Of a stretch of 64,000 nucleotides of DNA, positions 11,607-41,891 are shown piece by piece. The stretch is from contig JAYWIR010000105.1 of assembly GCA_036172245.1 (NCBI GenBank), positions 1 through 64,000 on the forward strand, in the 5' to 3' direction. The position numbers were made by a program, and so were the translations under genes. The DNA comes from Raillietiella orientalis (Eukaryota). Each line of letters starts with the position of its first letter. Position 1 is the first letter of the stretch. The notes beneath the pieces are model-generated. The model worked only from the letters and a program-made list of their open reading frames with translations, had not been told where the DNA came from and ran no database searches.

Positions 11607-11706
11607 TCTCCTCGAGAGCGGACGTTTTTTTCCGGCGCTCCGCGAACGAGCAGCGGAAAGCGGTTTTTTTGGTTCAGTGTGTGCTTTTTCACATCGTTGG
11701 TGTCCG

Positions 11707-17275: not shown

Positions 17276-18153
17276 GCAGTTAGGCGATGCAGGGGGAACT
17301 GATCGCAGAACTCCTGGACCGACCGCTTGAAGCGGTCCCAGTCCTAAAGTGTCTGCATCCTGAAGCTCCGAATAAACGCGCGGAGGTTCTCCGCCGCGTC
17401 GGGAAACTTCAGTCAGAACCCTGGCAGACGCCACGCTGACAAGGGGGGGCCCTTGTTGCGCGGACGCACTTAGAAAATGATCCGACCATGGTCCGACAAT
17501 TCGGATGGTACCTTGCCGCGCCTGCCCACCCGAGAGCATAGGTGCTGATCAAGGTACACGTGCTGGATGCTGCTTTCCATGGCCGTGTACCCGGCCAACA
17601 AGTTGCGCGTGTTCATTTCGGCGCACAACTCGTTGACGCGGTCGTTCAGTGTATCCGGCGCACCTAAAAGCAGGCGCAGGTTGAAATCACCTGCGATCAG
17701 GTGCGCTTTGCGAACTCCTGCATCGGTCAGACAATCGCGTCTCAGGGCAAGGTAGAATTCGCTTCTTGCCTTCGCCCTCAACGCGTTGTTTCCCCTAGAA
17801 GCGTATAGGTTGGTGACGACCAGGTCGATAGAGTCCGACCAGCTGAGAGTCAGCTGACCGACGCGACCTGCGTCATCGAACCGAACGTCCTTTATTGCGG
17901 GCTCGATGGCTGGGCGAAGCAGGAAAGCGACACCGCTTGATTTCGCGGTGCCGCAACGCCACAACAGCCGCCCACCCGAGATCCGTTCGATCTCCCGGGC
18001 TTGAGCTGCCGAGATCACGTGGATCTCCTGCAGCAGCACCAGGTCGAAGGATGCCAGGGTGGCGGCCACGTCACGCCTCTTGCCGTCGTCCCCTAGCCCG
18101 TTCACGCTCCAACAGGCGATCAGAAGACGACGGCGAGAGGCGATTCCCGGCAT
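17276..18153 (-). pseudogene. C1 ORF2 5' part: APE endonuclease and linker start
   Basis: MPGIASRRR..WSVNG, LLQEIH, GDFN, SDH; premature TAA at 17470. Confidence 0.9.
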
Positions 18154-19760: not shown

Positions 19761-19895
19761 CGCCCCCGGATCCTCTCCCGTGGTGGTATCAGGAATTGCT
19801 GCCTAATCCTCCACACACACCACGCAAAAGCACCAACGGAAATCGAACTCAGGAGCAACGAAAAGACACGTCCGCTCGACGCTCCGGAATCTCCA

Positions 19896-22678
19896 GGACT
19901 AAGACCTTTTTAAGGAATCGGTCCGCGAGTTCTGTGAGCAGTTCCCCCTGGATCGCCTGCCCCCCGGATTTGGCGAGGGAGCTCGCAACCATACAGGCTC
20001 GTAGGAACGAGAGAACCCCTAATGTCCGTCGCCTGGCTGAGTACCGCGCCGGGACCGAAAGCCAAGCCTGGCAATCCGGGTCGGCCAGCTTGCTGGACGA
20101 CCAGGGCCGGGAATGTTCTTCCCCGGCGCCGGTACGGCATCTTGTGCGGAGTTTTTATTCCTCCTTTTACGCCAGGGAGCCCCCGGATCGAAACGCCTCT
20201 CCGCGCTTGCTTCCGGATGGCGCCCCGGCAATAGGGGAGGAGGAGATGGAAAGCCTCGACGAGCCTTTTACCAACGGCGAAATTCTCGCCGGTATCCAAA
20301 GGCTCAAGAGGTGTAAAGCTCCAGGGGAAGACAACTTGCCCGCGGAGTTTTTTCAAAGCTTCGTGGAAGAGCTGGCACCCCTGCTGCTTAAGTTGATAAG
20401 GCTGATCCGAAACGAAGGCGATGTTCCCGCCTCGTTTCGGTTAGCCAGAGTGAGGCTCCTTCCGAAAGGGGAAGACCTCAGGGATTTAAAGAACTGGCGT
20501 TTGATCACGATCGTGGATACGGACGCCAAGTTGATAGCAGGGCTATGGGCTTCAAGGCTGGGGCAGGTGGCAGAATCCGTAATTAGCGCGGAGCAGACTT
20601 ATGCTGTTTCCGGGCAAAGTATGGATGCCACCCACTTCTTCGCAAGCACATGGGTGCACCTGCAGTGAAGACAAAAGAAAGGGATAGGGAAAGTCGGCAA
20701 ACCCACATTGGGGCCGCCAGCCGGGCTGGGAAGCGACCCCCGGGCGATGATGGGGGCCCTAGCGCTCTCAGTCGATCACCACAAGGCGTTCGACTGTGTA
20801 GACCAGGAACTCCTCTTGGAGCTCCTGAGTCGCATGGGCTTCCCACCCTCCCTGATTTACTACCTGCGCTCTTGCTGGCGGAATGCGATAATTACCGTCT
20901 GTTTCAGTGGACAGACGTTGTATGGCGTGCCGGTGCGGCGGGGCATAAGGCAGGGCGATAGCCTCAGCGCCCTGCTCTTCAGCACCTACTTTGAGTTGTG
21001 TTGAGAGCGTAGAGGGTGACTTTGGCCCCTTTGCCGAGCTCGTGCCCCGGCACGCCAGCCGTAGAAGCGTATGCCGACGATCTTCTGCTCCTCTTACCTA
21101 TGTCCACCCCGGCGAAGTCGGTCGGAGATTTCTTCGACCTGCTTAGCCGTGGGGCCGGATTACAGGTTAACAGGGCGAAGTCGTCAGGGTTGCCAGTTAG
21201 AGCGACGTGGGCAGGGCAGCAGGACTGGGTCCGTCCGGGGATCCCCACGTTGAGGTGCATCAAGTACCTCGGTGTGCCGTTGGGTGACTATTTCCCTGCG
21301 GAAGCGTGGTCCAGCTGTCTTCAAAAAGTTGAGACGGCGATCGGCCCGTTCCTGGAAGGCAAGTTTCACTTGCCGGAACGGGCCGCGGTTTGGACCGCCT
21401 TCGCGGTCTTCATCCTCCGCTTCTCGCTTTTTGTTTGCCCCGCCCCAGGAGTAGTTAAAAAGAGGACGAAGGACCTCCTCCGCATCGCTTTTTGGGGAAA
21501 GGGGAGGCCCCGATTCCCTCTGGAGGACTTGTGCGCTCCGCGTCGGGATGGCGGCCTTGGCCTCCTGACGCTGGAGCGCGTGGAAATTCAGCTGCGGTGG
21601 CGAAACCTTCGCCATCGCAGCGCAGATGTGGAGCACCGCTTGGTGCGTTCCGGCCCGCCACTTCGCCAGACGTGTGTCCCGATGCGAAGGAACCGCGTCG
21701 TTTCTTCTGTGCCCTGGCCGGAAGATCCGAAGATGCGGCCTTATGCTCGGACGCATAGCAACCTTGGCGAAGACGAACGGTTGGATGGTTTGTGGCCCCG
21801 CCAACTCCTCCGCCTGATTGGAGGAGTCTGCTGGCACATGGGCTAAGCTGAACCGGAGGAGTGAAAACCACATGAACTGCCTGCGAATCGGCCCATACGC
21901 CAACAGCACCCTGCGGGAAATACTGGAATTTCCTCGAAGTCGCAGGTGGGCGTTGACGACCTACCTTCCTACGGCGATGCCCTACCTTCTGCGGGCGCTT
22001 CAGGATCGCCAGAAGCCGAGATGGCAAGTCACCTTCCAGATCTCAGGCAGGGAGAAGATGTTAAGCGGCTGGACCACAGGAGAACAGGCGGACGCCACGA
22101 CCCCGAGCGTCCAGCCGCGTGGATTAATGAGATGGGGCGAGCTGCTCGCCATCCCTACGGATGTGCTGAAGTGGCCCCCGGTATTAAACGAATCCAGGAT
22201 TCTGCCCCTTATGTGGCAAGAGTCGGCGTTGCTACTGCTGTCCTGGGGTTTACCCTGCAACGCACGGCGCTTCCACTGGACAAGGGGAGCTGTGGATCCT
22301 GAGTGTGTCAGGTGCGGAGAGCGGGAATCGCTCTCCCACCTTATTGTGGACTGTGCTGCCATTCGACCCCTCTGGGAACGGTTCGGGGCGACCCTAGGGC
22401 TCCCTACGGGCAGCACCATCAGAGACGTTCTTCGGCCCCTCTTCGTGAAGGACGCACTTCAGCCAGCCGCAGCCATCGCAGCCTTGTGCTGCGTCCGAGG
22501 CATCGTGGCGGCATGGAGCGACACCAACAAGGAAGGAGTGGGTCAACACGCGAGGGATGTCATCCCATACGCCCAACGCTTCATGCGGAGAGCTGCCAGA
22601 TGACCCCAACTGGGGTATATACGGACGGACCTCGAGGGCTTCCTTCAACGGATGGGCCCTCCTCTCAGCGAACAGTGA
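19896..22678 (+). pseudogene. A1 ORF2 fragment 3: linker, RT and CCHC, disrupted
   Basis: KAPGEDN, DHHKAFD, GIRQGD, AYADD, CVRCGERESLSHLIVDC across broken frames. Confidence 0.9.
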
Positions 22679-22899
22679 TCCCTTCCCTGCCCCCCAACCT
22701 CATTTGTTTGTTTGCTTTTTTTTTTTTATTTTTGTTTTATCTCCATCCTCCTTCGCTGCTGAGGAACGCTACGCTGGGCTGCGTCCCGGTGTCCTGTTAG
22801 GTCCAGTGCATATGGCCGTGAGCGGTGCCTTGTACCGCGGATGTAGAGTTTTTTTAAAAATAAACGCCATGTGCGTACCCGGGTGTGAACCTCCCAGGC

Positions 22900-25208
22900 C
22901 AGTTGGAGGACGTGTTTTTCCTTCACTCCTCAAAGAGTAGTAGGAAAGCGCTTTCTTGTGTGTGGTGTTTTCTGTACATCATCGTTGTCCAATGGCCACG
23001 ACTTTAGAGGACACTGCGATGGAGGTGGGAAAGGGGGAGGCTAGTTCGCCCCACAGCCTACTGGAGCAAAAGCAGCCGCTCCGGAATCATCCCCGGTCAC
23101 GCCGTGGACATGGAGCGCCATGGTGGCCGCGCCCAGCGCAGAAGCCATGGCGGAGATGGCCGCATACAAGGCCTCCTTGTACAAGCCATCGCTTGTCTAC
23201 GAGGTAGGCAACTTGTTCGACGGCCGTACAGCGCGCGCCTTCAGCAAAGCGTTGAAGGACGCGAATGTCACCGAGAAGGATCTGGACGGCCTCTCCGTCC
23301 TCAGCGGCGGGCAGCGGATCGAGGTAGTCTGCAAAGATGTCACCTTGGCTCACCGCCTAATCCATGCGCCGCTGAACGTAGACGGCCGCCAGATCCTGCC
23401 AGTATGAATGGACCGATCCGTGGTGGTCCACATGACTAGCATCAGCAGCCGCATGACGCAATCAACGGTTGGTGAGGACTTACGGAAGTAAACTGAGGTG
23501 CACGCACTGTGGACGAAACCCTCCATTTTCGACGGCTTCGATAGCCTTTTTGGTGGTCAGGCTGCAGCGCGGTTCACCGAAAGGAAGAATTGTGGGCTTC
23601 ACCACAAACTACAGGTGGCGCAAGAAAACGTCGACCTGTGGTATGTAGGGAAGCCCCTGTATTGCGGGAATTGTGATACCGTGGGACAGCTAGGTAAAAG
23701 GTGTCTTAATATACAATGCCATTTGTGCAGGGTGCGGGGCCACGTTCGGCGCGTGTGCCCCAAACGCCCCACTTCGGTTCCCCCTGCCGCAAAAAAAGCG
23801 CCGGGTAAACGCGCTTTAAAGGTCTCTAGACCTAAAGTAGAAAAGGCCCAGCACAAGCTGCCAACACCTCAACCTCCGGCGCGTAAGCCAGAGGATAAAC
23901 CTTCTGAAACGGTGGAAGGCGAAGACGGATAGCAGCTTGTAGAGGCCAGAAAACCAAGGAAACTCCCACCCGCGAAGAGCAAAGAGCGCAAGACGGCCAA
24001 TTAGTTGAAAAAACCCGGTCCGCGCTCGAAAACTCTGCGCGAGTGCACGGTGGCACTGGAACGAATCGTCGTTCCCGAGATTGCTACCCGGAGCGTCGAT
24101 CAGCCCTTGCCGTTTCCGCTGTTTTCGAAGCTCGCGACGGCGAACGCTCTGTTTACACAGAGGGTGAGCTGCGGGACATAGCGGCGGTCGAAGCCGCAGA
24201 CGCCGCGTTCGCGCAGGCGGCGGAGGAGCTCGCGGTCACGCTGGCCGAGCGTGAGAATCCCTCACGCAAGGCCGTGCGAAGGCCGACTCCGGCGAGGAAG
24301 GCCCCCACAGGTGAGTAAGACCTGGGGTCCGGAAGTACATCCTCCTCCTCGGAGGCACCCCCCAGGAATTCAGGACGCAAGTCCCAGAAGCCCAGGAGGG
24401 GCCTCCCCTCCTCCAGCGAGGAGGAGAAGACGGAAGCCGCCGCCAGCGTGGGAAATTCGGAGGATGAATTCCCACGCTCGGAAGCCGTCGATGCGGCCAT
24501 CCCTATGAAGGAGGGTGAACAGGGGGGTGGAGTCTCCCCTGCAGGCGCCGACCCTGAACAGCCCGCCCCCATGGAGGAGGGCGAACACGTACGCGCGACC
24601 CCACCTTTGGGTGATCCGCTCGACGTACAGTTTCCTATGGAGGAGGGGGACCAGGTGCCTACAGCACCTGACCCCCCTCCTCCACCTAGCGTCCCGCCCC
24701 AGCAGGTGGCGGACGCCGCACTGCCATCTTACCAGGAGTAACACCTGGGCTCGCCAGTCGCCGTCGGATTCGCGCGGCCTGTTGGAATGTCAACGGGCTG
24801 CGCGACGACAGTAATAGGCGAGATAAAGCCGACACCCTGCGGGAATTCGACCTGGCCCTGTTGCAGGAGATCCACGTGATCACCGCAGCAGACGTCCAGG
24901 AGATCGAGACGATCGCGGGAGGTCGGCTGTACTGGCAAAGCAGCATCCGCAACACCTGCGGGGTCGCGTTCTTCGTGAAGCCGGCCACGGACGCTGCCGT
25001 GAAGGGCGTGCGCTTCGATGACGACGGCAGGGTCGGTCAGCTGATTCTCAGTGGTCCTAATCGATCGAACTGATCGTCACGAATGTGTACGCCCCCAGCC
25101 GTAAACAGGGATACAGCGACCGCACCAGGCTGCTGGAATCCATGAAGCGCGACTGGCTGGCGGACACGAACGTGCGGAAGGCTCACCTCATTGCGGGCGA
25201 TTTCAATC
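22900..25208 (+). mobile_element. LINE copy A3, 5' part only (decayed ORF1 22992-24741 and APE up to GDFN); interrupted by B2-B4, 3' part absent
   Basis: Starts CAGTTGGAGGACGTG like A4; separated from A1 by CCTCCCAGGC (22890-22899); ends at HLIAGDFN. Confidence 0.9.
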
Positions 25209-25214
25209 GAGTGC

Positions 25215-25227
25215 GGACGTGTTTTTC
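25215..25227 (+). promoter_or_regulatory. Representative 5'-terminal GGACGTG(T)n motif, DPE-like internal promoter candidate
   Basis: Present, exact or with 1-2 substitutions, within ~15 nt of all 13 visible 5' ends; function inferred only from resemblance to RGWCGTG. Confidence 0.55.
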
Positions 25228-25286
25228 TTCGCTCTCGTCTCCGTGCTTTCATCCGCTTCATCTTGGCGTCGTACATTTTGACGACG

Positions 25287-27210
25287 ATGTCGACCCAACT
25301 TGAAGCTACTGAAGTTGGAGGAACAGCATCCGGATCTGCAATCGCGGAACCGACGGCCGCCTCCACTTCGTCTTTCTCGCCAATGGAGAGGAGTTTTGCT
25401 GACGTTGCTGCCACAGCAGCCGTCAAAGGGAAACCACTCGACGAGTCGGAGTTGCGGGCATACGTAGCCCAAGGCTATAGACCTGCTCTCCGATATAAGG
25501 TGAGTGGTTTTCTTTCTGCGCGCGACGGGAATCAGTTCAACGATGAACTGACGCGTGTTGGCGTGCGGGAGGAGGACCTTCTCGCCATTATGCCCGTAAA
25601 AGACATGGGCTATTTCAAGGTGCGTTGCAAAGACGCTGCACTTGTGCAACGCTTGCTGCGCACCCCGTTGTCGATCCGTGGCCAGAAGGTCTTCCCGGCC
25701 GCCATGGACGACTCATTTGTGGCGGAGATTTTCGACATCGAGTCGGAAATCTCCGATACTGATATTCGGAACGCGTTGGCGAAATTCGCCACGGTCCATG
25801 CGCTGTGGAGGGTGCGTAGCAACCTCAAGGACTTCCCGTCCATACACAGCGGAGTCGCTGGAGTCCGGCTTACAATGCCGGACCGCCGTCTGCTGCCTAC
25901 CAAAATACAGGTGAATGACACGGTCGTTCACCTGTGGTTCGTGGGCAAAGTAAAAACGTGCGAGCAATGCGGGAACGAGGGGCATTGTTTGGATAAATGC
26001 CCCTCTGGAAAATGCCGTTATTGCAAACTATCCGGGCACCAATTGAAAAATTGCCCGGATCTTTTGCGAAAAAAGGCAGCCGCGGAGCTCCATTTTAAAA
26101 AACAGAGCGCGGATAAAAAGAAAAAATCTGCGAAAAACCTGGAGACCCCACGGCAGAAATTCGGTAAAAACGCGAGGCGGAATGTCGCCCCAAAGCAGCA
26201 GGAAACCTCGAACGCGAAGCCCTGCGCACCCCCTCTCGCGGCAGGGGAGCCGCAAAAGAAAGGGTGCGGGGACTCCGGGGCAATGGTAAGTCCCCCTAGG
26301 CGCAATAGCGGTCCTTCCCAAGCACGCCCGGCTCTCTCGGAGTTCGAGCAACCGGCGGGGACGTCAATGGACAACGGCGGTAAGGACACTTCCAGTACCG
26401 TCAGATCCATTCCTTCACCTCCTGCAGTGGCTGAGAAGCCCAAATCGGGTAAGAAGGGTTGTGCCGTGTCGACTTCGAAAGTCGGCAAAAAAAAAATCCG
26501 CGTCGCGATCCAACACCGCGAAAGCGGAGAAAAATCTCACGCCGTCGCAGTCGGAGAGCAAGCTCTCGACTGGCGCGGATGCCATGCCAACGAAGGGATT
26601 AAAAGCCCTTCCGAAAGCAGCGTCCATGACGAGCGTGTCGGAGCCATCGAAAGTGCTCCCGTCCAAAGACGCGGATGGCTTCAAAGATGGCCATGGAGCA
26701 CAATCTCCATTTACGGCGCCACGCGAAGTGAGGAACCGTAATGAAGTAAAGAAGACTTCAGCAAAGGTCCCTCGTGCAACTGCGCGTGAGCACGCTGAAA
26801 ACGCGCGCGCCGGGAAAGCAGCCGTCACCAAAAGCGATGCTCTGGTGACGGAAAACGAAAACAGGACAGCTGTCAATCCAGCAGAACCTGTCACTGCTTC
26901 GCGGAAGGCCGAAACCCGATCGAACATGCGCCGGTCGGACTCCGAAATGGATGCTGTTCCGATCACCGAGACGAGGACAACTCGTTCGAAAGCGTGTGCG
27001 CGCCGATCAAAAGTAGGCAGCCAGGCAACGCTCGCCGCGAAGCAACGCGAAGTCTCCACGAAACCCGACGGGGTTCAGCCTGGCGTGGAGGCATTACATG
27101 CATGCAGCACGACAGAGGACGGTGGCGACCGTCCCCTCCAGCCAGTCGTGCTGCTCGCCGTCTGCTCGCCGGATAAAGCGAGCAAAAAGCCGCCACCTTC
27201 CCAACAGTAA
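25287..27210 (+). pseudogene. B2 ORF1, single frameshift in an A-run near 26490
   Basis: ORFs 25191-26741 and 26461-27210 join to give the B3 ORF1 protein. Confidence 0.88.
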
Positions 27211-30200
27211 TGCGGGGAATCGCGTCTTCTCGTCGTCTGTCCGTAACGTGTTGGAACGTGAACGGACTGCAGAACGACGAGAAGAGGCGATTAGTAGCCA
27301 ACGCCCTGCGCCCCTTCGACCTCGCGCTCCTGCAAGAGATTCACGTAATCTCCGACGAGCAGGCAGCCGAAATCGAGGAGCGCGCAGGCGGAACGCTACA
27401 TTGGCGGTGCGGCGGCGCACACACGTGCGGCGTCGCGTTCCTCGTAAGAGGAAAAATGGCGGAAGCGGTGCGTAGTGTTCGTTTCGATGACGACGGACGG
27501 ATAGGCCAGATTGTCATCAAGTGGTCCGAGTCCATCGATCTCGTCGTTACGAACGTCTACGCGCCGAGTGGCTCTCGCTACCTCGAAGAAAGAGTAGCTT
27601 TCTTTGGTGAGGTGCAGAGCCAGTGGCTCAACAGCTCCGGCTTCCAAGTGGCGCACCTCGTCGCTGGGGACTTCAACGTCCGCCTGCTCTCCGACGATTG
27701 GAGCCGCCCGAGGGAGCGCGCGCTGCCCATCGAGATGTGCGCGTCCGTGCACGCCGCCAACTTGATGATCAGCGAACCTGGAATGGAAAGATCGCTCGAT
27801 CACGTTTTCCTCGATGAAAACCTGCATTCGCGTGTGGGCAGGAGAGGAAGATTGTTGACTAGGCTTTCTGACCACCACAGGTTGGAGTTTGAGATCCTTC
27901 CGCCAGGCAGGGGGCCTCCGTTGCAAAACTGGAGGATGCAGGCGGATTGGCTTAGCCAACCGGAGGCTGCGGAGCATCTACGTGGATACCTCCGAGGCTT
28001 TGCCATTCAAGAACTTGCGGACTGGGACGATCTCAAAAGATCTGTCCGCGAGTTCTGCTGCCAATTCATCTTGCACCGGCTTCCACGCGGTTTCGGAGAG
28101 GGCGTGGCCAACAGTAGAGACTTTCTGCAGGCCCGCACGTTTTCGAGACGCGCGGATGTCGGGCGTCTCGCAGAGTACAAGGCGAGGGCCGAGCGCCAGG
28201 TCTGGCAGTCCGGAGCAGCATGCCTGTTGGACGACAAAGGCCAGGAATGTTCGGCCCCAGCCGAAGTACGCCGCATTGTGAGACGCTACTACTCCTCGCT
28301 CTACGCGGAATCCCCGACGGAGAATATTCTTTCTGAGATACTCCTGTCTCAGGATGCTCGTGTTGTCGGCGAGGAGGAACGCGAACGTCTCGACGAGCCC
28401 TTCACGGCGGATGAATTTTCGTTCGCCATCGCTGGGCTGAAGAGACGAAAGGCGCCAGGCGAGGATGGGCTCCCTGCAGAGTTTTATCAGTGCTTTGCAG
28501 TGGAGCTCATTCCTTTGATGCTGAAACTCGCGACGCTGATGAGTGAATACGGAAATGTCCCTGATTCCTTCCGCTCAGCGAAGGTGCGTCTCCTGCCGAA
28601 AGGCGGAGACTTGCGCCAACTTAACAACTGGCGTCCGATCACCTTGGTGAACTCGGACGTCAAGTTGTTTTCCAAGCTGTGGGTCGCGCGGTTAGGAAGA
28701 ATCGCGGAATCTGTGGTGAGCCCGGAACAAACCTACGCGGTTCCGGGACGATCCATGGAGGCGAACATCCTTTTCGCGCGTACATGGATGCAGCTGCAGG
28801 AAGTTGTGGCGCAGCAAAGCCAGGCTGCTGCGAAAGTCACTGCCGCAGGCAAAAAGAACAGGCGCCGACGGCAGGAGGGAACGCCAGGTGCCTTGGCGGT
28901 CGCGGTCGATCTCCACAAAGCGTTCGACTGCGTAAACCAGAAGCTGCTTTTGGAGCTTATGGAACGCCTTGGGTTCCCGGCGCAACTCCTGCTGTATTTG
29001 CGCGCGTGCTGGCGCCACGCGCTAACCTGCATCACTTTTAGCGGCTGCCGCGTGTATGGTATTCCCGTTCGTAGGGGCATCCGACAGGGCGACAGCTTAA
29101 GCCCGTTGCTCTTCAGCATCTTCTTTGAGTTGGTGCTAAGAGCATACAGGCTGACGCTGTCTCACTTGCCAAGCTCCTGCCCGGGAACGCCTGCCGTGGC
29201 CGCCTACGCTGATGACCTGCTTCTTCTGCTCCCCATGTCCACCCCGGCGTCCAGTGTCGAGGACTTCTTCGACCTGATTCGTCGGGGAGCGGGCGTGAGC
29301 GTGAACAGAGAGAAGAGCGTGGTCGTTCCTGTGGGTACGTCGTGGGAGGGGCAGTCCGACTGGATACGCCTGGGGATCCCCACGGGCGGGTACTTTAAGT
29401 ACCTTGGCGTTCCGTTGGGCGCTTTCGGCGCAGCCGAAGCGTGGGCGGACTGTCTTCAGAAAGCAGAGTTGGCCATCAGCCCGTTCTTTAACGGCAAGTT
29501 TACCTTGCAGGAACGGGCGACTATTTGGAACACCTTTGTGGCCCCCCTCCTCCGTCCCCTGTTTTTTGTTTTGGACCCCCCTATGCGGCAAAACAGCGGG
29601 CTAAGCGCCTGCTCAGGAACGCTCTCTGGGGTCCGGCGAGATCCAGGATCCGCCTTAAAGATTTGTCAGCTCCGCGTCGGGATGCTGGTTTGGGTATCCT
29701 GACAATGGAGCGAATCGGACTGCAGGTGCAGTTCCGACTGCTGGCACTGTGTGCCCAGCTATGGACATCCCCCCTGTGTGTGCCAGCTCGCATTCTCCTG
29801 CGGAGATGCGCCGGCAGCGGAGGATTTCTCTCGCTTTTGCCGGGCACTCAATACAGGAAGCGGGGTTTCGGGTTTCCATTGCGGCAGTTGACCGCACTTC
29901 TGGAAGCACACACTTGGATCTCCTGCCGCCCAATGAACTTTGAAGCTTGGCGGCAGGAGTCTGTTGAATCCTGGGCGGCGTTCCAAGGAATACGCCCTGA
30001 AGATCTTCGCCCCCTGCGCCAATTTTTTCCACGATCCTTGGAAGAAGTACTGCAGGACGAGGTGAAGTTTTCTACACTGGCTGCCACGCCTCTTGCCGCA
30101 GCGCTGTCTGCCCTCAGGGCAAGAAACGACAGTTACCAACCGGCGAGGTGGGAGGTTTCCTGCACGATAGCGGGAAGAACCAAACTCCTTGGCACCTGGA

Positions 30201-30802
30201 AGCCAAGTGAGTTGGCGGACGCCGCCACTCCTCGTGTTACTGCAAAGGGACTCCTCCGGTGGGCAGAAGAACTTGCTGTCACCCCCGAAGAACTTGTAGT
30301 CCCTCCACAGTGTATGGACAGTTCGCTGCTCCCCCTTGCTTGGAAACAAGCCGTGCTGCTTTTCGTTCACTGGGGTTTTCAGTGCAACGAGCGTTGGCAT
30401 CGTGACTCTGGGGGACTTGCGTCTGCGAACTGCGTTCGGTGCGGGTCGACGGAGTCGATTCCGCACCTACTTCTGGACTGCGGTGTCCTACAAGGACTGT
30501 GGCGTAGGCTGGCAACAGCACTATTGCATCCCGTGGACACCGCAAGAGACTTGCTGCGACGATTCTTCACGCCGAGCGGGCTTTCAGTAAGCGCAAGGAT
30601 TGCAACTATCGGTTGCATACGCGCGATAGTTTCCGTCCGCCAGGCGTTGGTAATCAACGGACAGTACCAAGAGGTAATCAGCAAAGCATCCTTCTACATG
30701 GGAGCATCCGCTAGATGGCCTCATTTGACAGAGGAGACAAAGAGGAATCTCGCCGCAATACACCGCCGGTTTACACACCCTCATCAGCGGCCAACCCGGT
30801 GA
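27210..30802 (+). pseudogene. B2 ORF2 APE-RT-CCHC, single frameshift in a C-run near 29580 (nearly intact, ~1200 aa)
   Basis: 830-aa and 425-aa ORFs overlap; all catalytic motifs present; CVRCGSTESIPHLLLDC. Confidence 0.92.
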
Positions 30803-31202
30803 TCATTGCCCTACCCTCCATAAACTAAATTTGTATTTTCTTTTTACACCCGCGTCCCCATAGGCTCCGGAACATTTGAGGTGCTCATCGTTTAAATCCC
30901 CGTGAGTACGGAGCCTAACCAAAACCCCTTTTCCCTTCCCTCCAGTTTTTGATTTTTGTTTGTTTCCCCTCATTCCCCCCACGCTGCGAGCGGTTTGTTT
31001 ACCAGGCCTGCGTGGCGGTAATTTTTCTATGTTCTCTGTCGTTCTGTTGGTTGGGGACATTGTCCCTGACCAGTTTATTATAATTAATAAACGCCCCGGC
31101 GTGACCGGGTGATAAATTTCAATCGAGTGCGGACGTGTTTTTCTTCGCTCTCGTCTCCGTGCTTTCATCCGCTTCATCTTGGCGTCGTACATTTTGACGA
31201 CG

Positions 31203-33119
31203 ATGTCGACCCAACTTGAAGCTACTGAAGTTGGAGGAACAGCATCCGGATCTGCAATCGCGGAACCGACGGCCTCCTCCACTTCGTCTCTCTCGCCAAT
31301 GGAGAGGAGTTTTGCTGACGTTGCTGCCACAGCAGCCGTCAAAGGGAAACCACTCGACGAGTCGGAGTTGCGGGCATACGTAGCCCAAGGCTATAGACCT
31401 GCTCTCCGATATAAGGTGAGTGGTTTTCTTTCTGCGCGCGACGGGAATCAGTTCATCGATGAACTGACCCGTGTTGGCGTGCGGGAGGAGGACCTTCTCG
31501 CCATTATGCCCGTAAAAGACATGGGCTATTTCAAGGTGCGTTGCAAAGACGCTGCACTTGTGCAACGCTTGCTGTGCACCCCGTTGTCGATCCGTGGCCA
31601 GAAGGTCTTCCCGGCCGCCATGGACGACTCATTTGTGGTGGAGATTTTCGACATCGAGTCGGAAATCTCCGATACTGATATTCGGAACGCGTTGGCGAAA
31701 TTCGCCACGGTCCATGCGCTGTGGAGGGTGCGTAGCAACCTCAAGGACTTCCCGTCCATACACAGAGGAGTCGCTGGAGTCCGGCTTACAATGCCGGACC
31801 GCCGTCTGCTGCCCACCAAACTACAGGTGAAAGACACGGTCGTTCACCTGTGGTTCGTGGGCAAAGTAAGAACGTGCGAGCAATGCGGGAAGGAGGGGCA
31901 TTGTTTGGATAAATGCCCCTCTGGAAAATGCCGTTATTGCAAACTATCCGGGCACCAATTGAAAAATTGCCCGGATCTTTTGCGAAAAAAGGCAGCCGCG
32001 GAGCTCCATTTTAAAAAACAAAGCGCGGATAAAAAGAAAAAATCTGCGAAAAACCTGGAGACCAAACGGCAGAAATTCGGTAAAAACGCGAGGCGGAATG
32101 TCGCCCCAAAGCAGCAGGAAACCTCGCACGCGAAGCCCTGCGCACCCCCTCTCGCGGCAGGGGAGTTGCAAAAGAAAGGGTGCGGGGAATCCGGGGCAAT
32201 GGTAAGTCCCCCTAGGCGCAATAGCTGTCCTTCGCAAGCACGCCCGGATCTCTCGGAGTTCGAGCAACCGGCGGGGACGCCAATGGACAACGGCGGTAGG
32301 GACACTTTCAGTACCGTCAGATCCATTCCTCCACCTCCTGCAGTGGCTGAGAAGCCCAAATCGGGTAAGAAGGGTTGTGCCGTGTCGACTTCGAAAGTCG
32401 GAAAAAAAAAATCTGCGTCGCGATCCAACACCGCGAAAGCGGAGAAAAACCTCACGGCGTCGCAGTCGGAGAGCAAGCTCTCGAATGGCGCGGATGCGAT
32501 GCCAACGAAGGGATTAAAAGCCCTTCCGAGGGCAGCGTCCATGACGAGCGTGTCGGAGCCATCGAAAGTTCTCCCGTCCAAAGACGCGGATGGCTTCAAA
32601 GATGGCCATGGAGCACAATCTCCATTTACGGCGCCACGCGAAGTAAGGAACCGTAATGAAGTAAAGAAGACTTCAGCAAAGGTCCCTCGTGCAACTGCGC
32701 GTGAGCACGCTGAAAACGCGCGCGCCGGGAAAGCAGCCGTCACCAAAAGCGATGCTCTGGTGACGGAAAACGAAAAGAGGACAGCTGTCAATCCAGCAGA
32801 ACCTGTCACTGCTTCGCGGAAGGCCGAAACCCGATCGAACATGCGCCGGTCAGACTCCGAAATGGATGCCGTTCCGATCACCGAGACGAGGACAACTCGT
32901 TCGAAAGCGTGTGCGCCCCGATCAAAAGTAGGCAGCCAGGCAACGCTCGCCGCGAAGCAACGCGAAGTCTCCACGAAACCCGACGGGGTTAAGCCTGGCG
33001 TGGAGGCATTACATGCATGCAGCACGACAGAGGACGGTGGCGACCGTCCCCTCCAGCCAGTCGTGCTGCTCGCCGTCTGCTCGCCGGATAAAGCGAGCAA
33101 AAAGCTGCCACCTTCTTAG
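31203..33119 (+). CDS. B3 ORF1, essentially intact (stops two codons early)
   Basis: Open frame with both knuckles; TAG at 33117-19 replaces a Gln codon. Confidence 0.88.
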   Translation: MSTQLEATEVGGTASGSAIAEPTASSTSSLSPMERSFADVAATAAVKGKPLDESELRAYVAQGYRPALRYKVSGFLSARDGNQFIDELTRVGVREEDLLAIMPVKDMGYFKVRCKDAALVQRLLCTPLSIRGQKVFPAAMDDSFVVEIFDIESEISDTDIRNALAKFATVHALWRVRSNLKDFPSIHRGVAGVRLTMPDRRLLPTKLQVKDTVVHLWFVGKVRTCEQCGKEGHCLDKCPSGKCRYCKLSGHQLKNCPDLLRKKAAAELHFKKQSADKKKKSAKNLETKRQKFGKNARRNVAPKQQETSHAKPCAPPLAAGELQKKGCGESGAMVSPPRRNSCPSQARPDLSEFEQPAGTPMDNGGRDTFSTVRSIPPPPAVAEKPKSGKKGCAVSTSKVGKKKSASRSNTAKAEKNLTASQSESKLSNGADAMPTKGLKALPRAASMTSVSEPSKVLPSKDADGFKDGHGAQSPFTAPREVRNRNEVKKTSAKVPRATAREHAENARAGKAAVTKSDALVTENEKRTAVNPAEPVTASRKAETRSNMRRSDSEMDAVPITETRTTRSKACAPRSKVGSQATLAAKQREVSTKPDGVKPGVEALHACSTTEDGGDRPLQPVVLLAVCSPDKASKKLPPS

Positions 33120-33124
33120 CAGTA

Positions 33125-36100
33125 ATGCGGGTAATCGCGTCTTCTCGTTGTCTGTCCGTAACGTGTTGGAACGTGAACGGACTGCAGAACGACGAGAAGA
33201 GGCGATTAGTAGCCAACGCCCTGCGCCCCTTCGACCTCGCGCTGCTGCAGGAGATTCACGTAATCTCCGACGAGCAGGCAGCCGAAATTGAGGAGCGCGC
33301 AGGCGGAACGCTACATTGGCAGTGCGGCGGCGCACACACGTGCGGCGGCGCGTTCCTCGTAAGAGGAAAAATGGCGGAAGCGGTGCGCAGTGTTTGTTTC
33401 GATGACAACGGACGGATAGGCCAGCTTGTCATCAAGTGGTCCGAGTCCATCGATCTCGTCGTTACGAACGTCTACGCGCCGAGTGGCTCTCGCTACCTCG
33501 AAGAAAGAGTAGCTTTCTTTGGTGAGGTGCAGAGCCAGTGGCTCAACAGCTCCGGCTTCCAAGTGGCGCACCTCGCCGCTGGGGACTTCAACGTCCGCCT
33601 GCTCTCCGACGATTGGAGCCGCCCGAGGGAGCGCGCGCTGCCCACCGAGATGTGCGCGTCCGTGCACGCCGCCAACTTGATGGTCAGCGAACCTGGAATG
33701 GAAAGATCGCTCGATCACGTTTTCCTCGATGAAAACCTGCATTCGCGTGTGGGTAGGAGAGGAAGATTGTTGACTGAGCTTTCTGACCACCACAGGTTGG
33801 AGTTTGAGATCTTTCCGCCAGGCAGGGGGCCTCCGTTGCAAAGCTGGAGGATGCAGGCGGATTGGTTTAGCCAACCGGAGGCTGCGGAGCATCTACGTGG
33901 ATACCTCCGGGGCTTTGCCATTCAAGAACTTGCGGACTGGGACGATCTCAAAAGATCTGTCCGCGAATTCTGTTGCCCATTCCCCTTGCATCGGCTTCCA
34001 CGCGGTTTCGGAGAGGGCGTGGCCAACAGTAGAGACTTTCTGCAGGCCCGCACGTTTTCGAGACGCGCGGATGTCGGGCGTCTTGCAGAGTACAAGGCGA
34101 GGGCCGAGCGCCAGGTCTGGCAGTCCGGAGCAGCATGCCTGTTGGACGACAAAAGCCAGGAATGTTCGGCCCCAGCCGGAGTACGCCGCATTGTGAGACC
34201 CTACTACTCCTCGCTCTACGCGGAATCCCCGACGGAGGATATTCTTTCTGAGATACTCCTGTCTCAGGATGCTCGTGTTGTCGGCGAGGAGGAACGCGAA
34301 CGTCTCGACGAGCCCTTCACGGCGGATGAATTTTCGTCCGCCATCGCTGGGCTGAAGAGACGAAAGGCGCCAGGCGAGGATGGACTCCCTGCAGAGTTTT
34401 ATCAGTGCTTTGCAGTGGAGCTCATTCCCTTGATGCTCAAACTCGCGAAGCTGATGAGTGAATCCGGGAATGTCCCTGATTCCTTCCGCTCAGCGAAGGT
34501 GCGTCTCCTGCCGAAAGACGGAGACTTGCGCCAGCTTAACAACTGGCGTCCGATCACCTTGGTGAACTCGGACTTCAAGTTGTTTTCCAAGCTGTGGGTC
34601 GCGCGGTTAGGAAGAATCGCGGAATCTGTGGTGAGCTCGGAACAAACCTACGCGGTTTCGGGACGATCCATGGAGGCGAACATCCTTTTCGCGCGTACAT
34701 GGATGCAGCTGCAGGAAGTTGTGGCGCAGCAAAGCCAGGCTGCTGCGAAAGTCACTGCCGCAGGCAAAAAGAACAGGCGCCGACGGTAGGAGGAAACGCC
34801 AGGTGCCTTGGCGGTCGCGGTCGATCTCCACAAGGCGTTCGACTGCGTAAACCAGAAGCTGCTTTTGGAGCTTATGGAACGCCTTGGGTTCCCGGCGCAA
34901 CTCCTGCTGTATTTGCGCGCGTGCTGGCGCCACGCGCTAACCTGCATCACTTTTAGCGGCTGCCGCGTGTATGGTATTCCCGTTCGTAGGGGCATCCGAC
35001 AGGGCGACAGCTTAAGCCCGTTGCTCTTCAGCATCTTCTTTGAGTTGGTGCTAAGAGCATACAGGCTGACGCTGTTTCACTTGCCAAGCTCCTGCCCGGG
35101 AACGCCTGCCGTGGCCGCCTACGCTGATGACCTGCTTCTTCTGCTCCCCATGTCCACCCCGGCGTCCAGTGTCGAGGATTTCTTCGACCTGATTCGTCGG
35201 GGAGCGGGCGTGAGCGTGAACTGAGAGAAGAGCGTGGTCGTTCCTGTGGGTACGTCGTGGGAGGGGCAGTCCGACTGGATCCGCCTGGGGATCCCCACGG
35301 GCGGGTACTTTAAGTACCTTAACGTTCCGTTGGGCGCTTTCAGCGCAGCCGAAGCGTGGGCGGACTGCCTTCAGGAAGCAGAGTTGGCCATCAGCCCGTT
35401 CTTTAACGGCAAGTTTACCTTGCAGGAACGGGCGACTATTTGGAACACCTTTGTGGCCCCCCTCCTCCGTCCCCTGTTTTTTGTTTTGGACCCCTCCTAT
35501 GCGGCAAAACAGCGGGCTAAGCGCCTGCTCAGGAACGCTCTCTGGGGTCCGGCGAGATCCAGATTCCGCCTTAAAGATTTGTCAGCTCCGCGTCGGGATG
35601 CTGGTTTGGGTATCCTGACAATGGAGCGAATCGGACTGCAGGTGCAGTTCCGACTGCTGGCACTGTGTGCCCAGCTATGGACATCCCTCCTGTGTGTGCC
35701 AGCTCGCATTCTCCTGCGGAGATGCGCCGGCAGCGGAGGATTACTCTCGCTTTTGCCGGGCACTCAATACAGGAAGCGGGGTTTCGGTTTTCCATTGCGG
35801 CAGTTGACCGCACTTCTGGAAGCACACTCTTGGATCTCCTGCCGCTCAATGAACTTTGAAGCTTGGCGGCAGGAGTCTGTTGAATCCTGGGCGGCGTTTC
35901 AAGGAATACGCCCTGAAGATTTTCTTTCCCTGCGCCAATTTTTTCCACGATCCTTGGAAGAAGTACTGCAGGACGAGTTGAAGTTTTCTATGCTGGCTGC
36001 CACGCCTCTTGCCGCAGCGCTGTCTGCCCTGAGGGCAAGAAACGACAGTTACCAACCGGCGAGGTAAGAGGTTTCCTGCACGATAGCGGGAAGAACCAAA

Positions 36101-36718
36101 CTCCTTGGCACCTGGAAGACAAGTGAGTTGGCGGACTCCGCCACTCCTCGTGTTACTGCAAAGGGACTGCTCCGGTGGGCAGAAGAACTTGCTGTCACCC
36201 CCGAAGAACTTGTAGTCCAACCACAGTGTATGGACAGTTCGCTGCTCCCCCCTGCTTGGAAACAAGCCGTGCTGCTTTTCGTTCACTAGGGTTTTCAGTG
36301 CAACGAGCGTTGGCATCGTGACTCCGGGGGACTTGCGTCTGCGAACTGCGTTCGGTGCGGATCGACGGAGTCGATTCCGCACCTACTTCTGGACTGCGGT
36401 GTCCTACAAGGACTGTGGCGTAGGCTGGCAACAGCACTATTGCATCCCGTGGACACCGCAAGAGACTTGCTGCGACGATTCTTCACGCCGAGCGGGCTTT
36501 CACTAAGCGCAAGGATTGCAACCATCGGTTGCATACGCGCGATAGTTTCCGTCCGCCAGGCATTGGTAATCAACGGACAGCACCAAGAGGTAATCAGAAA
36601 AGCATCCTTCTACATGGGAGCATCCGCTAGATGGCCTCATTTGACAGAGGAGACAAAGAGGAATCTCGCCGCAATACACCGCCGGTTTACACACCCTCAT
36701 CAGGGGCCAACCCGGTGA
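33125..36718 (+). pseudogene. B3 ORF2 with several nonsense codons
   Basis: Stops near 34787, 35222, 36065 and 36287 in an otherwise colinear B ORF2. Confidence 0.92.
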
Positions 36719-37043
36719 TCATTGCCCTACCCTCCATAAACTAAATTTGTATTTTCTTTTTACACCCGCGTCCCCATAGGCTCCGGAACATTTTAGGTGC
36801 TCATCGTATAAATCCCCGTGAGTACGGAGCCTAACCAAAAACCCGTTACCGTTGTCTCCAGTTTTTGATTTTTGTTTGTTTCCCCTCATTCCCCCCACGC
36901 TGCGAGCGGTTTGTTTACCAGGCCTGCGTGCCGGTAATTTTTCTATGTTCTCTGTCGTTCTCTTGGTTGGGGACATTGTCCCTGACCAGTTTATTATTAT
37001 TATTAATAAACGCCCCGGCGTGACCGGGTGATAAATTTCAATC

Positions 37044-38333
37044 GAATGCGGACGTGTTTTTCTTCGCTCTCGTCTCCGTGGTTTCATCCGCTTTATCTTG
37101 GCGTCGTACATTTTGACGACGATGTCGACCCAACTTGAAGCTACTGAAGTTGGAGGAACAGCATCCGGATCTGCAATCGCGGAACCGACGGCCGCCTCCA
37201 CTCCGTCCTTCTCGCCAATTGAGAGGAGTTTTGCTGACGTTGCTGCCACAGCAGCCGTCAAAGGGAAGCCACTCGACGAGTCGCAGTTGCGGTCATACGT
37301 AGCCGAAGGCTATAGACCTGCTCTCCGATATAAGGTGAGTGGTTTTCTTTCTGCGCGCGACGGGAATCAGTTCAACGATGAACTGACCCGTGTTGGCGTG
37401 CGGGAGGAGGACCTTCTCGCTATTATGCCCGTGAAAGACATGACCTATTTCAAGGTGCGTTGCAAAGACGCTGCACCTGTGCAACGCTTGCTGCGCACCC
37501 CGTTGTCGATCCGTGGCCAGAAGGTCTTCCCGGCCGCCATGGACGACTCATTTGTGGCGGACATTTTCGACATCGAGTCGGAAATCTCCGATATTGATAT
37601 TCGGAACGCGTTGGCGAAATTCGCCACGGTCCATGCGCTGTGGAGGGTGCGTAGCAACCTCAAGGACTTCCCGTCAATACACAGCGGAGTCGCTGGAGTC
37701 CGGCTTACAATGCCGGAACGCCGTCTACTGCCCACCAAACTACAGGTGAAAGACACGGTCGTTTACCTGTGGTTCGTGGGCAAAGTAAGAACGTGCGAGC
37801 ATTGCGGGAAGGAGGGGCATTGTTTGGATAAATGCCCCTCTGGAAAATGCCGTTATTGCAAACTATCCGGACACCAATTGAAAAATTGCCCGGATCTTTT
37901 GCGAAAAAAGGCAGCCGCGGAGCTCCGTTTTAGAAAACAAAGCGCGGATAAGAAGAAAAAATCTGCGAAAAACCTTGAGACACTTCGGCAGAAATTCCGA
38001 AAAAACGCGAAGCGGAATGCCGCCCCAAAGCAGCTCGAAACCTCGCACGCGAAGCCCTGCGCGCCCCCTCTCGCGGCAGGGGAGCCGCAGAAGAAAGGGT
38101 GCGGGGAATATGGTGCAATGCTAAGTCCCCCTAGGCGCAATAGCTGTCCTTCCCAAGCACGCCCGGCTCTCTCGGAGTTCGAGCAACCGGCGGGGACGTC
38201 AATGGACAACGGCGGTAAGGACACTTCCAGTAACGTCAGATCCATTCCTTCACCTCCTGCAGTGGCTGAGAAGCCCAAATCGGGTAAGAAGGGTTGTGCC
38301 GTGTCGACTTCGAAAGTCGGCCAAAAAAAATCC
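37044..38333 (+). mobile_element. LINE copy B4, 3'-truncated within ORF1
   Basis: B 5' end and ORF1 from ATG 37122; similarity to B stops at AAAAAAAATCC (38333). Confidence 0.9.
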
Positions 38334-38955
38334 CGGACGTCAGCGGGAGGAGATTCCCGGCATTACTGCCGGGAAGATGACGGTGTGTGGGAACCCGCCT
38401 TTTCCGAGGCGGGTGAGATGACCATTAGAGTTTCGGCCTCCTCAGGCACCTTGAGTACCTTTCCGTTTTCAACCTCCTCCATCTCTACCGTGTCTGTGCG
38501 TTGTGGTCTCTCGGGTGACGATTCCCGGGATTCTCCCACGTTCATGGCACCATTGCAGTCTGAAGTCATCTCCACGCCTTCGGCCTGGAGAGGGGCTTTC
38601 CGGGGTTTGCTGGACTACCTTCCAGCCTTCCGACGGGGTGGCGTGGAGATGGAAACTTGGTTTCCGGCCTGCGCTGCGGGGTCGGAAGTTACCGACTCGT
38701 CGGTGGAGGCCGGACGCCTCACTGCCTTTTTGCCAGCCTTGGAGGTTTACACCCGGGTACGCCCGGGGCGTTTATTGGTAAAACTCTACATCCGCGGTAC
38801 AAGGCATCGCTCACGGCCATATACACTGGACCTGGCAGGAAGCCAGGACGCAGCCCAGCGTAGCGGTGCGCAGCAGCGAAGGATGATGGGGAAAAAACAA
38901 AATGAAAAATAAAAAAAATAAACAGACAAAAAGAAGTTTGAGGGCAGGGAAGGGA

Positions 38956-41764
38956 TCAGTAAACGCTGTGAGGAGGGCCCATCCGTTGCAGGAAGCCCTC
39001 GAGGTCCGTCCGTATATTCCCCAGTTGGGGCCATCCGGCAGCTCTCCGCATGAAGCGTTGGGCGTATGGGATGACATCCCTCGCGTGTGGACCCACTGCT
39101 TCCTTATTGGCGTTGCTCCATGCCGCCACGATGCCACGGACACAGCACAAGGCTGCGATGGCTGCGGCTGGTTGCAGTGCGTCCTTCACGAAGAGGGGCC
39201 GAAGAACGTCTCTGGGGGTGCTACCTGCAGGGAGCCCAAGGGTCGTCCCGAACCGTTCCCAAAGGCGTCGGAGGGCAGCACAATCCACAATAAGGTGATG
39301 AAGCGACTCACGCTCCCCGCATCTGGCACACGCAGGATCCACAGCTCCCCTCGTCCAGTGGAAGCGGCGTGCGTTGTAGGGTAAACCCCAGTGCAGCAGT
39401 AGCAACGCCGACTCTTGCCACTTAATGGGCAGGATCCTGGATTCCTTTAGTACCGGGGACCACTTCAGCACATCCGTAGGGATGGCGAGCAGCTCGCCTC
39501 ATCTCATTAATCCACGCAAATGGACGCTCGTGGTCGTGGCGTCCGCCAGTTCTCCTGTGCTCCAGCCGCTTAACATCTTCTGCCTGCCTGCGATCTGGCA
39601 GGTGACTTCCCACCTCGGCTTCTGGCGATCCTGAAGCGCCTTCAGGAGATAGAGCATCGCCGTAGCAAGGAAGTCGTGAACGCCCACCTGCGACTCCGGG
39701 GAAATTCCAGTATTTCCCGCAGGTAGCGGTTGGCCTGTGGGCCGATTCGCAGGCAGTTCATGTGGTTTTCACTCCTCCGGTTCTGCTCTGCCCATGTTCC
39801 AGCAGTCTCCTCCAATCAGGCGGAGGAGCTGGCGGGGCCGCAAACCATCCAGCCGTTCGTCTTCGCCAGGGTTGCTATGCGTCCGAGCATAAAACCGCAT
39901 CTTCGGATCTTCCGCCCAGGGCACAGAAGAAACGACGCGAGTCCTTCGCATCGGGACACACGCTTGGCGAGGAGGCGGGACGTCACGCACCAAGGGGTGC
40001 TCCACATCTTCGCTGCGATGGCGAAAGTTCGCCACCGCAGCTGTATTTCCACGCGCTCCAGCGTCAGGAGGCCAAGAACGTCGTCCCGACGCGGGGCGCA
40101 AAAGTCCCTCAGAGGGACTAGTTGCCTCTTTCGCCCAAAAGGTCGACACGTAAGAGGTCCTTCGTCCTGTTTTTGCATTCTCTGGGGGCGGGACAAACAA
40201 AAAGCAAGAAGCGGAGGATGAGGGACGCAAAAGTGTTCCAAACCGCGTCCCGTTCCGGCAAGTGAAACTTCCCTTCCAGGAACGGGCCGATCGCCGTCTC
40301 AACTTTTTGAAGACAGCTGGACCACGCTTCCGCAGGGGAGTAGTCACTCAACGGCACACCAAGGTACTTGAGGCACCTCGCCGTGGGGATCCCCAGACGG
40401 ACCCAGTCCTGCTGCCCTGCCCACGCCGCACCTACGGGCACCACCGACGTCTTCGCCCATTTGACCTGCAGTCCGGTCCCACGGCTGAGCAGATCGAAGA
40501 AGTCTCCGACCGCCTTCGCCGGGGTGGACATAGGTAACAGGAGCAGAAGGTCGTCGGCATAGGCTGCGTCGGCGGGCGTGCCGGGACACGAGCTCGGCAA
40601 GGAGGCCAAAGTCACCCTGTACGCTCTTAGCACCAACTCAAAGTAGGTGTTGAAGAGCAGGGGGCTGAGGCTATCTCCCTGCCTGATGCTTCGCCGCTTC
40701 GGCACGCCATACACCTTCTGGCTACTGAAACAGACGGAGATAAACGCATTCCGCCAGCAAGAGCGCAGGTAGGTAATCAAGGAGGGTGGGAAGCCCATGC
40801 GGCCCAGGAGCTCCAACAAAAGCGCCTCGTCAACACAGTCGAACGCCTTATGGAGTTCGACTGCGAGCGCTAAGGCCCCCTTCCCCGCTTGGGAGTGCAT
40901 TCCCTGCCCTGCTGGCGGCCCCAAAGTGGGGTTCCCGATTCTTAATTTCCCTTCCTTTTGACACCTCTGCGCGTGCATCCATGTGCTCCCGAAGAAGAGG
41001 TTGGCGCCCATACTTCGCCCGGGAACAGCATATGTCTGCTTCCGGCTAATTATGGATTCTACCACCTGCCCCAGACGCGAAGCCCATAGCCCTGCTATCA
41101 ACTTGGCGTCCATATTCACGATCGTGATCAAACGCCAGTTCTTTAAATCCCCGAGGTCTTCCCCTTTCGGAAGGAGCCTCACTCTGGCTAACCGAAATGA
41201 GGCGGGAACATCGCCTTCGTTTCGGATCAGCCTTATCAACTTAAGCAGCAGGGGTGCCAGCTCTTCCACGAAGCTTTGAAAAAACTCCGCGGGCAAGTTG
41301 TCTTCCCCTGGAGCTTTACACCTCTTGAGCCTTTGGATACCGGCGAGAATTTCGCCGGTGGTAAAAGGCTTGTCGAGGCTTTCCATCTCCTCCTCCCCTA
41401 TTGCCGGGGCGCCATCCGGAAGCAAGCGCGGAGAGGCGTTTTGATCCGGGGGCGCCCTAGCGTGAAGGGAGGAATAATAACTCCGCACGAGATGCCGTAC
41501 CGACGCCGGGGACGAACATTCCCGGCCCTGGTCGTCCAGCAAGCTGGCCGACACAGATTGCCAGGCTTGGCGTTCGGCCCCGGCGCGGATCTCGGCCAGG
41601 CGACGGACATTAGGGGTTCGCTCGTACCTAAGAGCCTGTAAATAGGCCCGATGGTTGCGAGCACCCTCGCCGAATCCGGAGGGCAGGCGGTTCAGGGGAA
41701 ACCGCTCGTACAACTTCCGGACCAATTCCTTAAAAAGGTCCCAGTCCTGGAGATTCCTGAACGT
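38956..41764 (-). pseudogene. A4 ORF2 3' part: linker, RT and CCHC
   Basis: 535-aa ORF 40118-41725 with ELHKAFD, IRQGD, AYADD; CARCGERESLHHLIVDC. Confidence 0.9.
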
Positions 41765-41891
41765 CGAGCGGACGTGTCTTTTCGTTGCTCCTTAGTTCCA
41801 TTTCCGTTGGTGCTTGTGCGTGGTGTGGGTGGAGGATTAGGCAGCAATGCCTGATACCACCACCGGTGAGGATCCGGGGGCGATGTCCTAA

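Follow-up and report, generated by a model that had tools for sequence, protein, structure and literature searches.

A head-to-tail LINE junction within a nest of sister LINE families, each at its own short site inside another

Positions 31086–31140 of the window, by which we mean the whole 64-kb stretch of DNA that was analyzed, are the joint between two head-to-tail copies, A2 and A3, of one LINE family, here called family A. The 3′ end of A2 is followed by a single 9-bp copy of the target, ATTTCAATC, and then by the 5′ end of A3, in this order:

31086–31091, forward strand: AATAAA hexamer of A2, 24 nt from the A2 3′ boundary
31095–31109, forward strand: GC hairpin of A2, CCCGG-CGTGA-CCGGG
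31111–31115, forward strand: 3′ tail of A2, GATAA, without poly(A)
31116–31124, forward strand: target or target-site duplication (TSD) ATTTCAATC, one copy between A2 and A3
31125–31143, forward strand: 5′ end of A3, GAGT followed by a conserved 15-mer, GCGGACGTGTTTTTC (31129–31143), the “DPE-like” motif

This junction anatomy is firmly established. The dinucleotide CG directly follows the AATAAA of A2, a T lies between the hairpin and the GATAA tail, and GAGTGCGGACGTGTTT makes up the rest of the interval after the 9-mer. A3 begins GAGTGC at 31125 and carries GGACGTG at 31131–31137, 6 nt inside its 5′ boundary. The initial annotation had placed an AATAAA about 25 nt from the 3′ boundary and a DPE-like motif against the 5′ boundary, and both placements are correct.

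Self-comparison reveals that a unit of 5.9 kb occurs four times in the window, the fourth copy being cut:

2439–8348, forward strand: A1, inside host element B1, with ATTTCAATC at 2430–2438 and 8349–8357
25209–31115, forward strand: A2; its upstream TSD, 25200–25208, is the D-F-N codons of host element B2
31125–37034, forward strand: A3
37044–38333, forward strand: A4, cut in ORF1 at 38333, with a TSD copy before it at 37035–37043
53115–53123, reverse strand: empty A site, a perfect target in host copy B3

At 38333/38334, A4 ends inside ORF1 after a run of eight A's and adjoins an oppositely oriented element, H, that is broken at about codon 11 of ORF2; this joint is not of the TPRT type and is a rearrangement or an assembly joint. 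The ORF2 of family A matches the Pfam models Exo_endo_phos (PF03372, E = 5.5e-13) and RVT_1 (PF00078, E = 1.3e-21), contains every APE catalytic motif (WNVNG, QEIH, NVYAP, GDFN, LDH, and SDH), and shows a YADD box in translation; the best solved relatives of the endonuclease are L1 endonucleases (E about 1e-6). A zf-RVT match (E = 0.0066) falls below its cutoff, as does the Pfam match to the CCHC knuckles that ORF1 bears. By these predicted domains, family A is an APE-type non-LTR retrotransposon (LINE) with ORF1, an APE endonuclease, and a reverse transcriptase (RT). Both ORFs are open together in none of the A copies. A protein search returned 38 matches, one of them 62% identical and without DNA context and the others at most 29% identical; the distant named ones include a fish protein annotated as “reverse transcriptase” and hypothetical proteins of fungi. 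A metagenome scan with the 3′-end pattern yielded 120 loci, which we take as chance matches, a related RT or ORF1 being found at 0 of the 120; one locus (L020) has an APE-like stretch that is 22% identical.

The 9-mer ATTTCAATC reads GAT-TTC-AAT-C and encodes D-F-N within the catalytic GDFN motif of family B, in which A is inserted in the sense orientation. Excision of A1 together with one 9-mer rejoins a continuous family B ORF2, and the uninterrupted paralogue B3 reads GGGAG-ATTTCAATC-TCCGCC at 53123–53115. The exact 9-mer is found at the GDFN codons of family B only, those of C, D, F, G, and I differing by at least one base. The corresponding sequence of A itself, GACTTCAACG, differs from the target only at synonymous or third positions, so that A is immune to itself and family B is hit. 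These codons of A, GGGGACTTCAAC-G, lie at about element position 2457 (window 27666–27677, for example). Staggered cleavage duplicates the 9-mer, and the duplicate regenerates the A target; A2, A3, and A4, separated by exactly one ATTTCAATC each, share one target because it is regenerated in this way as the TSD. The initial annotation, which had A2 on a target unrelated to that of A3 and A4, was mistaken on this point: all four copies are preceded by the same 9-mer.

The surroundings follow the same logic on a larger scale. Mapped by tblastn, self-alignment, and junction reads, the entire window resolves into a nest of at least eight sister LINE families, each at its own 9- to 19-bp site inside another family. 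The elements other than A are as follows:

13–2438, 8358–8689, and 19894–22891, forward strand: host B1, interrupted by A1 and C1
22901–25208, forward strand: host B2, the next head-to-tail element after B1, separated from it by the spacer TCCCAGGCC (22892–22900)
38744–55425 (pieces 52796–55425 and 38744–41762), reverse strand: host B3, in ORF1 of H, enclosing C2 and F
8690–19880 (pieces 8690–11606 and 17276–19880), reverse strand: C1, antisense in B1, TSD GAGATTCCGGAGC, enclosing D
41763–52782 (pieces 41763–46630 and 52131–52782), forward strand: C2, in B3 at the site used by C1, enclosing F
11607–17264, forward strand: D, TSD CCCCAAATCCC, with empty sites at 44365–44375 (in C2) and 59750–59760 (in I)
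46631–52119, reverse strand: F, 11-bp TSD, in the C-terminal region of C2 ORF2, with an empty site in C1 at 9341–9351
56836–60486, reverse strand: I (3′ part), followed by a 19-nt spacer (56817–56835) and then H
55435–56816 plus 38334–38734: H, head-to-tail with I
60487–64000, forward strand: G, which is the closest relative of A; antisense APE codons of I adjoin its 5′ end, and the element extends past the window edge

Once inserts are excised by coordinates, nine of nine reconstructed elements are full length (5489–5910 nt). The sites used by these families are:

C: GAGATTCCGGAGC, 13 bp, antisense in ORF2 of B, in two hosts
D: CCCCAAATCCC, 11 bp, antisense of the GFGEG codons of C
F: 11 bp, in the C-terminal part of the ORF2 of C
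B: TCCMAGGCY, 9 bp, in an ORF1
I/H: the 19-nt spacer, resembling the antisense DLRKAFD codons of an RT with 4 mismatches
G: 5′ end adjoining antisense EIERI codons in the APE of I, one G junction being visible

The TSDs of A, D, F, and C (9, 11, 11, and 13 bp) each have an empty counterpart, namely a paralogue in the window for A, D, and F and, for C, one DNA contig of sequencing run X1. The three DNA runs, X1–X3, were aligned on window positions 8000–25300 and gave short contigs, 15 of the 329 from X1 being at least 99% alike. A further X1 contig joins window position 24930 to 8697 with TTATC between them and marks a candidate further family, with a hairpin of the C/F type and a GATAA tail, inserted antisense into B-like APE sequence at a position that carries no insertion in the window. 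Free targets for A, D, and B, perfect or with a single mismatch, also remain (53115–53123 on the reverse strand, 59750–59760, 18528–18536, and 43106–43114), so saturation has not been reached. Practically the entire 64 kb consists of LINE sequence, at 53–63% GC and with no host gene, and the nest is reminiscent of the nested LINE clusters described from algal centromeres. B1 is mosaic in structure: the initial 1.4 kb (window 1–1430) is 68–70% identical to B2, B3, and D (compared over 22908–24247, 55418–54077, and 11601–12961, respectively), the remainder is 84–95% identical to B2 and B3, and a 62-bp internal repeat (1304–1365 and 1418–1479) lies at the switch point.

Shared junctions could in principle have been copied along with their surroundings. 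Segmental duplication is rejected as their source by comparison of inserts with hosts: A1 and A2 are 96.0% identical, against 84.2% for 1-kb host stretches of B1 and B2 upstream of them, and C1 and C2 are 93.7–95.1% identical, against 88.9% for hosts B1 and B3. Since the inserts are more alike than their hosts, A and C have each hit one nucleotide position twice, independently, within this window. The independent events are few, amounting to one or two hosts per family plus the arrays.

Related families do not share sites. A and G, whose ORF2s are 73–74% identical, lie in the sense GDFN codons of B and by antisense EIERI codons, respectively; B and D, 65–90% identical in nucleotides along their length, lie in an ORF1 site and in antisense GFGEG codons. 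The earlier claim that close relatives use unrelated targets thus stands in a weaker form, for A versus G and B versus D, and fails for A2, A3, and A4 with their common target. These closest pairs with different targets diverge most in the APE loops after GDFN: over the ~40 residues that follow the motif, dN is 0.31 for B versus D and 0.41 for A versus G, compared with 0.085 and 0.20 in the N-terminal part. The dN/dS ratio in the loops is 0.4–0.6; being below 1, it does not support diversifying selection, and the loops may simply be less constrained. B and D moreover share a segment from the end of ORF1 to the GDFN codons (e.g., 12901–13924) at 82–90% nucleotide identity and a dS of 0.26, compared with 65–80% and 0.77–0.94 outside it. 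This pattern points to recombination between families with different targets, in which the N-terminal half of the APE domain would have been recently exchanged; since B and D share that half and yet differ in site, at least this half is not what sets the target. The nick dinucleotides differ by family, with no common consensus, and TSD lengths are family specific (9, 9, 11, 11, 13, and about 19 bp).

The element ends are conserved across the nest. We surveyed ten 3′ ends (A1, A2, A3, B1, B3, C1, C2, D, F, and I), and all ten carry a GC hairpin followed by a tail of 5–9 nt (GATAA, GACAA, GAGAA, GTAAAA, GTGTAAACC/GTGTGAACC, or TTTCAATA/TTTCAATG) and an exact junction without untemplated bases. 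Tails are constant within a family, being identical in 3/3 for A and of the same length in 2/2 for both B and C. A poly(A) or simple-repeat tail is not universal among LINEs and is absent here, more than four terminal A's occurring at none of the ten 3′ ends of the window, as had been noted initially for the junctions. We looked for microhomology between tail and TSD at the window junctions and found none. The hairpin is predicted in six of seven single folds, and in an RNAalifold analysis of nine 3′ ends it is conserved in sequence, with compensatory change in 0/5 pairs; the structure is therefore plausible as a prediction that rests on sequence conservation and not on covariation. We considered the hairpin loops as readers of the target and rejected the idea: B and D share CGTA and C and F share CGCAC, yet the targets within each pair differ.

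The hexamer AATAAA lies 24–27 nt from the 3′ end in four of the six families (A, B, C, and F); D has AATGAA and I an A-run. In A and F it is predicted to pair with an upstream TTTATT stretch into an AU-rich stem (z = −2.0 and −2.5, respectively), at 31074–31091 in A2 and at 46662–46680 on the reverse strand in F. The stem partners in I are the A-run and a T-run, and in D the A-to-G change pairs with U. The hexamer may owe its conservation to RNA structure and not to a role as a poly(A) signal.

At the 5′ side, GGACGT is exact in 10 of 13 element ends, about 7 nt inside the element, the variants being AAACGT (A1), AGACGT (G), and AGAGGT (F); outside this motif the 5′ UTRs are 43–58% identical between families. 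A DPE has the form RGWYV and spans +28 to +32 from the transcription start. GGACGT, which begins 7–8 nt inside the element, is misplaced for this role: DPE spacing would put the start 20 nt upstream, beyond the 9-bp TSD, and A1 and A2 carry no upstream flank, host sequence being contiguous. A promoter of the HeT-A-like 3′ kind, combining a TATA-like box of the upstream copy with the “DPE” across the junction, was likewise rejected for want of a conserved geometry; the hexamer or A-run lies 39 nt (A), 43 nt (B), and about 49 nt (I/H junction) from the 5′ motif.

We posit, with moderate confidence, that A is a site-specific LINE inserting in the sense orientation in ATTTCAATC, for which site choice falls to the family nuclease, placement of the RT to the hairpin, and growth of the array to re-entry into the TSD. 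Each family's endonuclease would nick its own site by means of the variable loops lying between GDFN and the (I/L)DH strand. The RT would bind the conserved 3′ hairpin and begin cDNA at a fixed point 5–9 nt behind it, and such a fixed start would give precise junctions without poly(A). Later copies would re-enter the TSD to produce a tandem array. As in R1Bm, R2, and melanogaster-type R1, target-derived RNA at the transcript ends may assist with priming or with 5′ joining; the choice of site would not depend on it. A precedent is described in part of PMC1919474, where swapping the TRAS1 and SART1 endonucleases shifts the insertion site. The same source reports that the R1Bm endonuclease by itself recognizes about 5 nt; by analogy, the endonuclease here may not account for sites of 9–19 bp, which would count against the nuclease-led view. 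Also against it, B and D differ in site despite sharing the N-terminal half of the APE domain, and all ten 3′ ends have exact junctions, the outcome that annealed read-through RNA gives in R1Bm and R2Ol.

A second reading is modeled on R1Bm: the endonuclease still picks and nicks the site, and read-through RNA carrying at least 9 nt of the target anneals there and fixes the cDNA start. Annealing would raise accuracy and efficiency and thereby favor array growth. We regard this as possible and entertain it tentatively. It fits the exact 3′ junctions and the tails that are constant within families (A, 3/3; lengths in B and C, 2/2), and it could draw on the family C tail, described below, as a possible fossil of an earlier target. 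The hexamer may be sequestered in the AU-rich stem (z = −2.0 in A and −2.5 in F), is absent in I, and is altered in D, so cleavage at the boundary is not assured. R1Bm and R2Ol supply precedents (in the relevant portions of PMC7265360 and PMC6795142). However, an RT that measures its start from the hairpin explains the exact junctions equally well.

The A2-A3-A4 array might also have grown without repeated insertion, by tandem duplication, or by unequal crossing-over, of a single insertion together with its TSD. The junctions at 31116 and 37035 are identical, and other parts of the nest show clear gene conversion and recombination. Yet neighbors in the array differ by 2.4–4.7%, as much as A1 and A2 at separate loci (4.0%); the one-spacer architecture recurs at B1-B2 and at I-H; and R1 arrays of this pattern are attributed to re-insertion in the part of PMC2718515 that treats them. 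We consider duplication an unlikely origin of the array.

Also unlikely is the strong form of RNA guidance, the speculation from which the analysis departed. Here, the proteins would be largely generic, and TSD or flank sequence borne by the transcript would base-pair with the nicked DNA and decide where priming occurs, making the address heritable and reprogrammable. The background to this proposal is sound: annealing of read-through target RNA, which the initial annotation had cited as known for R1Bm- and R2-type integration, is documented for R2Ol and R1Bm in the relevant parts of PMC6795142 and PMC7265360. The locus offers several further hints, among them the ten exact 3′ junctions without poly(A) and the different targets of B and D despite their shared APE N-terminal half. 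The tail that follows the hairpin in family C, TTTCAAT(A/G), equals 7 nt of the A target (P about 0.012 by composition-preserving shuffles, post hoc) and may have been transduced from an earlier target and left as a fossil; the argument nevertheless amounts to one post hoc match. In B3, the 5′ TSD copy, TCCCAGGCC, shows 2 mismatches in 9 positions to the 3′ copy of the same element, TCCAAGGCT, and equals the separate B1/B2 spacer, and the 3′ copy agrees with the homologous codons of C, so that this one 5′ TSD copy of family B looks inherited. The window contains no off-target copy in which a tag of a former flank might be read. Deviating positions number 6/75 in 5′ TSD copies and 1/66 in 3′ copies, but this excess is not significant (Fisher p = 0.08). 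D and the 5′ module of B1 both follow AATCCC with different 7-nt fillers, which argues against an RNA 5′ end that bears the TSD.

The remaining evidence weighs against a transcript-borne address as the determinant. Its key example is void, A2, A3, and A4 being on one target, and no family occupies two different sites in the window (A, 4/4; C, 2/2; B, 3/3). Every change of target is accompanied by divergence concentrated in the endonuclease loops, and family-specific TSD lengths without a nick-dinucleotide consensus would be unexpected for one generic nuclease. If AATAAA, 24–27 nt before the end in four of six families, is a used poly(A) signal, it would stop the RNA at the boundary. The related picture of a guild of sister LINEs whose address resides at the ends of the RNA template, in the TSD or flank of the parental locus, likewise receives little credence from us.

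Elements of this kind are known from R1, Tx1L, and the Zepp nests. R1, as represented by R1Bm and Drosophila R1 in the portions of the literature that we draw on, resembles A in being an APE-type LINE with one exact target, a fixed TSD, and arrays spaced by one TSD; the pertinent part of PMC2718515 describes R1 copies separated by a 14-bp TSD and explains them by insertion into the TSD of resident copies. Passages in PMC2718515 and PMC7265360 further state that downstream target sequence is needed for accurate reverse transcription in R1Bm and that transcripts of some R1 lineages carry upstream target. R1 differs in that its target is 28S rDNA, whereas here at least eight sister families target one another's coding sequence, and in that the best solved relatives of the endonuclease here are of the L1 type. 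The Tx1 group (Tx1L, Keno, Mutsu, and others), in the account given in PMC1919474, comprises L1-like LINEs of the APE type whose insertion is sequence specific; the transposon Tx1D is the target of Tx1L, and the Tx1L endonuclease recognizes about 10 bp. In contrast to that group, the targets here are catalytic-motif codons of related LINEs, in either orientation, and poly(A) is lacking. Zepp and ZeppL of green algae form GC-rich LINE clusters by insertion into existing copies, according to sections of PMC8226300 and PMC3446292, but Zepp arrays are mostly 5′-truncated 3′ ends, whereas here nine of nine elements are full length, with one exact site per family and a clean TSD. R2 (R2Ol and R2Bm) differs from A in its restriction-like endonuclease, single ORF, rDNA target, and co-transcription with the host; in R2Ol, accuracy and efficiency both rise when 28S RNA from read-through anneals to the target (PMC6795142). 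In human L1, complementarity of the RNA 3′ end to the last ~10 nt of nicked DNA modulates priming (“snap-velcro”; PMC3649969), but L1 sets poly(A) against T-tracts and has low specificity. In the portions of the literature that our search reached, we came across no guild of sister LINEs that home to the catalytic-motif codons of one another.

The targets in this nest are conserved catalytic or structural motif codons of rival LINEs: GDFN in the sense orientation for A, GFGEG in antisense for D, and probably DLRKAFD in antisense for I/H. Each insertion therefore inactivates its host element, and the elements disable one another within a gene-free nest. If the RNA-address reading were true, a lineage could switch to a new site and stably inherit it before any change in its endonuclease, and the C tail and the B 5′ TSD copy would be fossils of such switches. 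Whether the nuclease or the RNA template determines the target matters to transposon biology and to LINE-based gene-insertion tools alike, and the locus constitutes a natural test bed for this question, with at least eight related families at different exact sites, recombinant nuclease modules in B and D, and clean empty sites.
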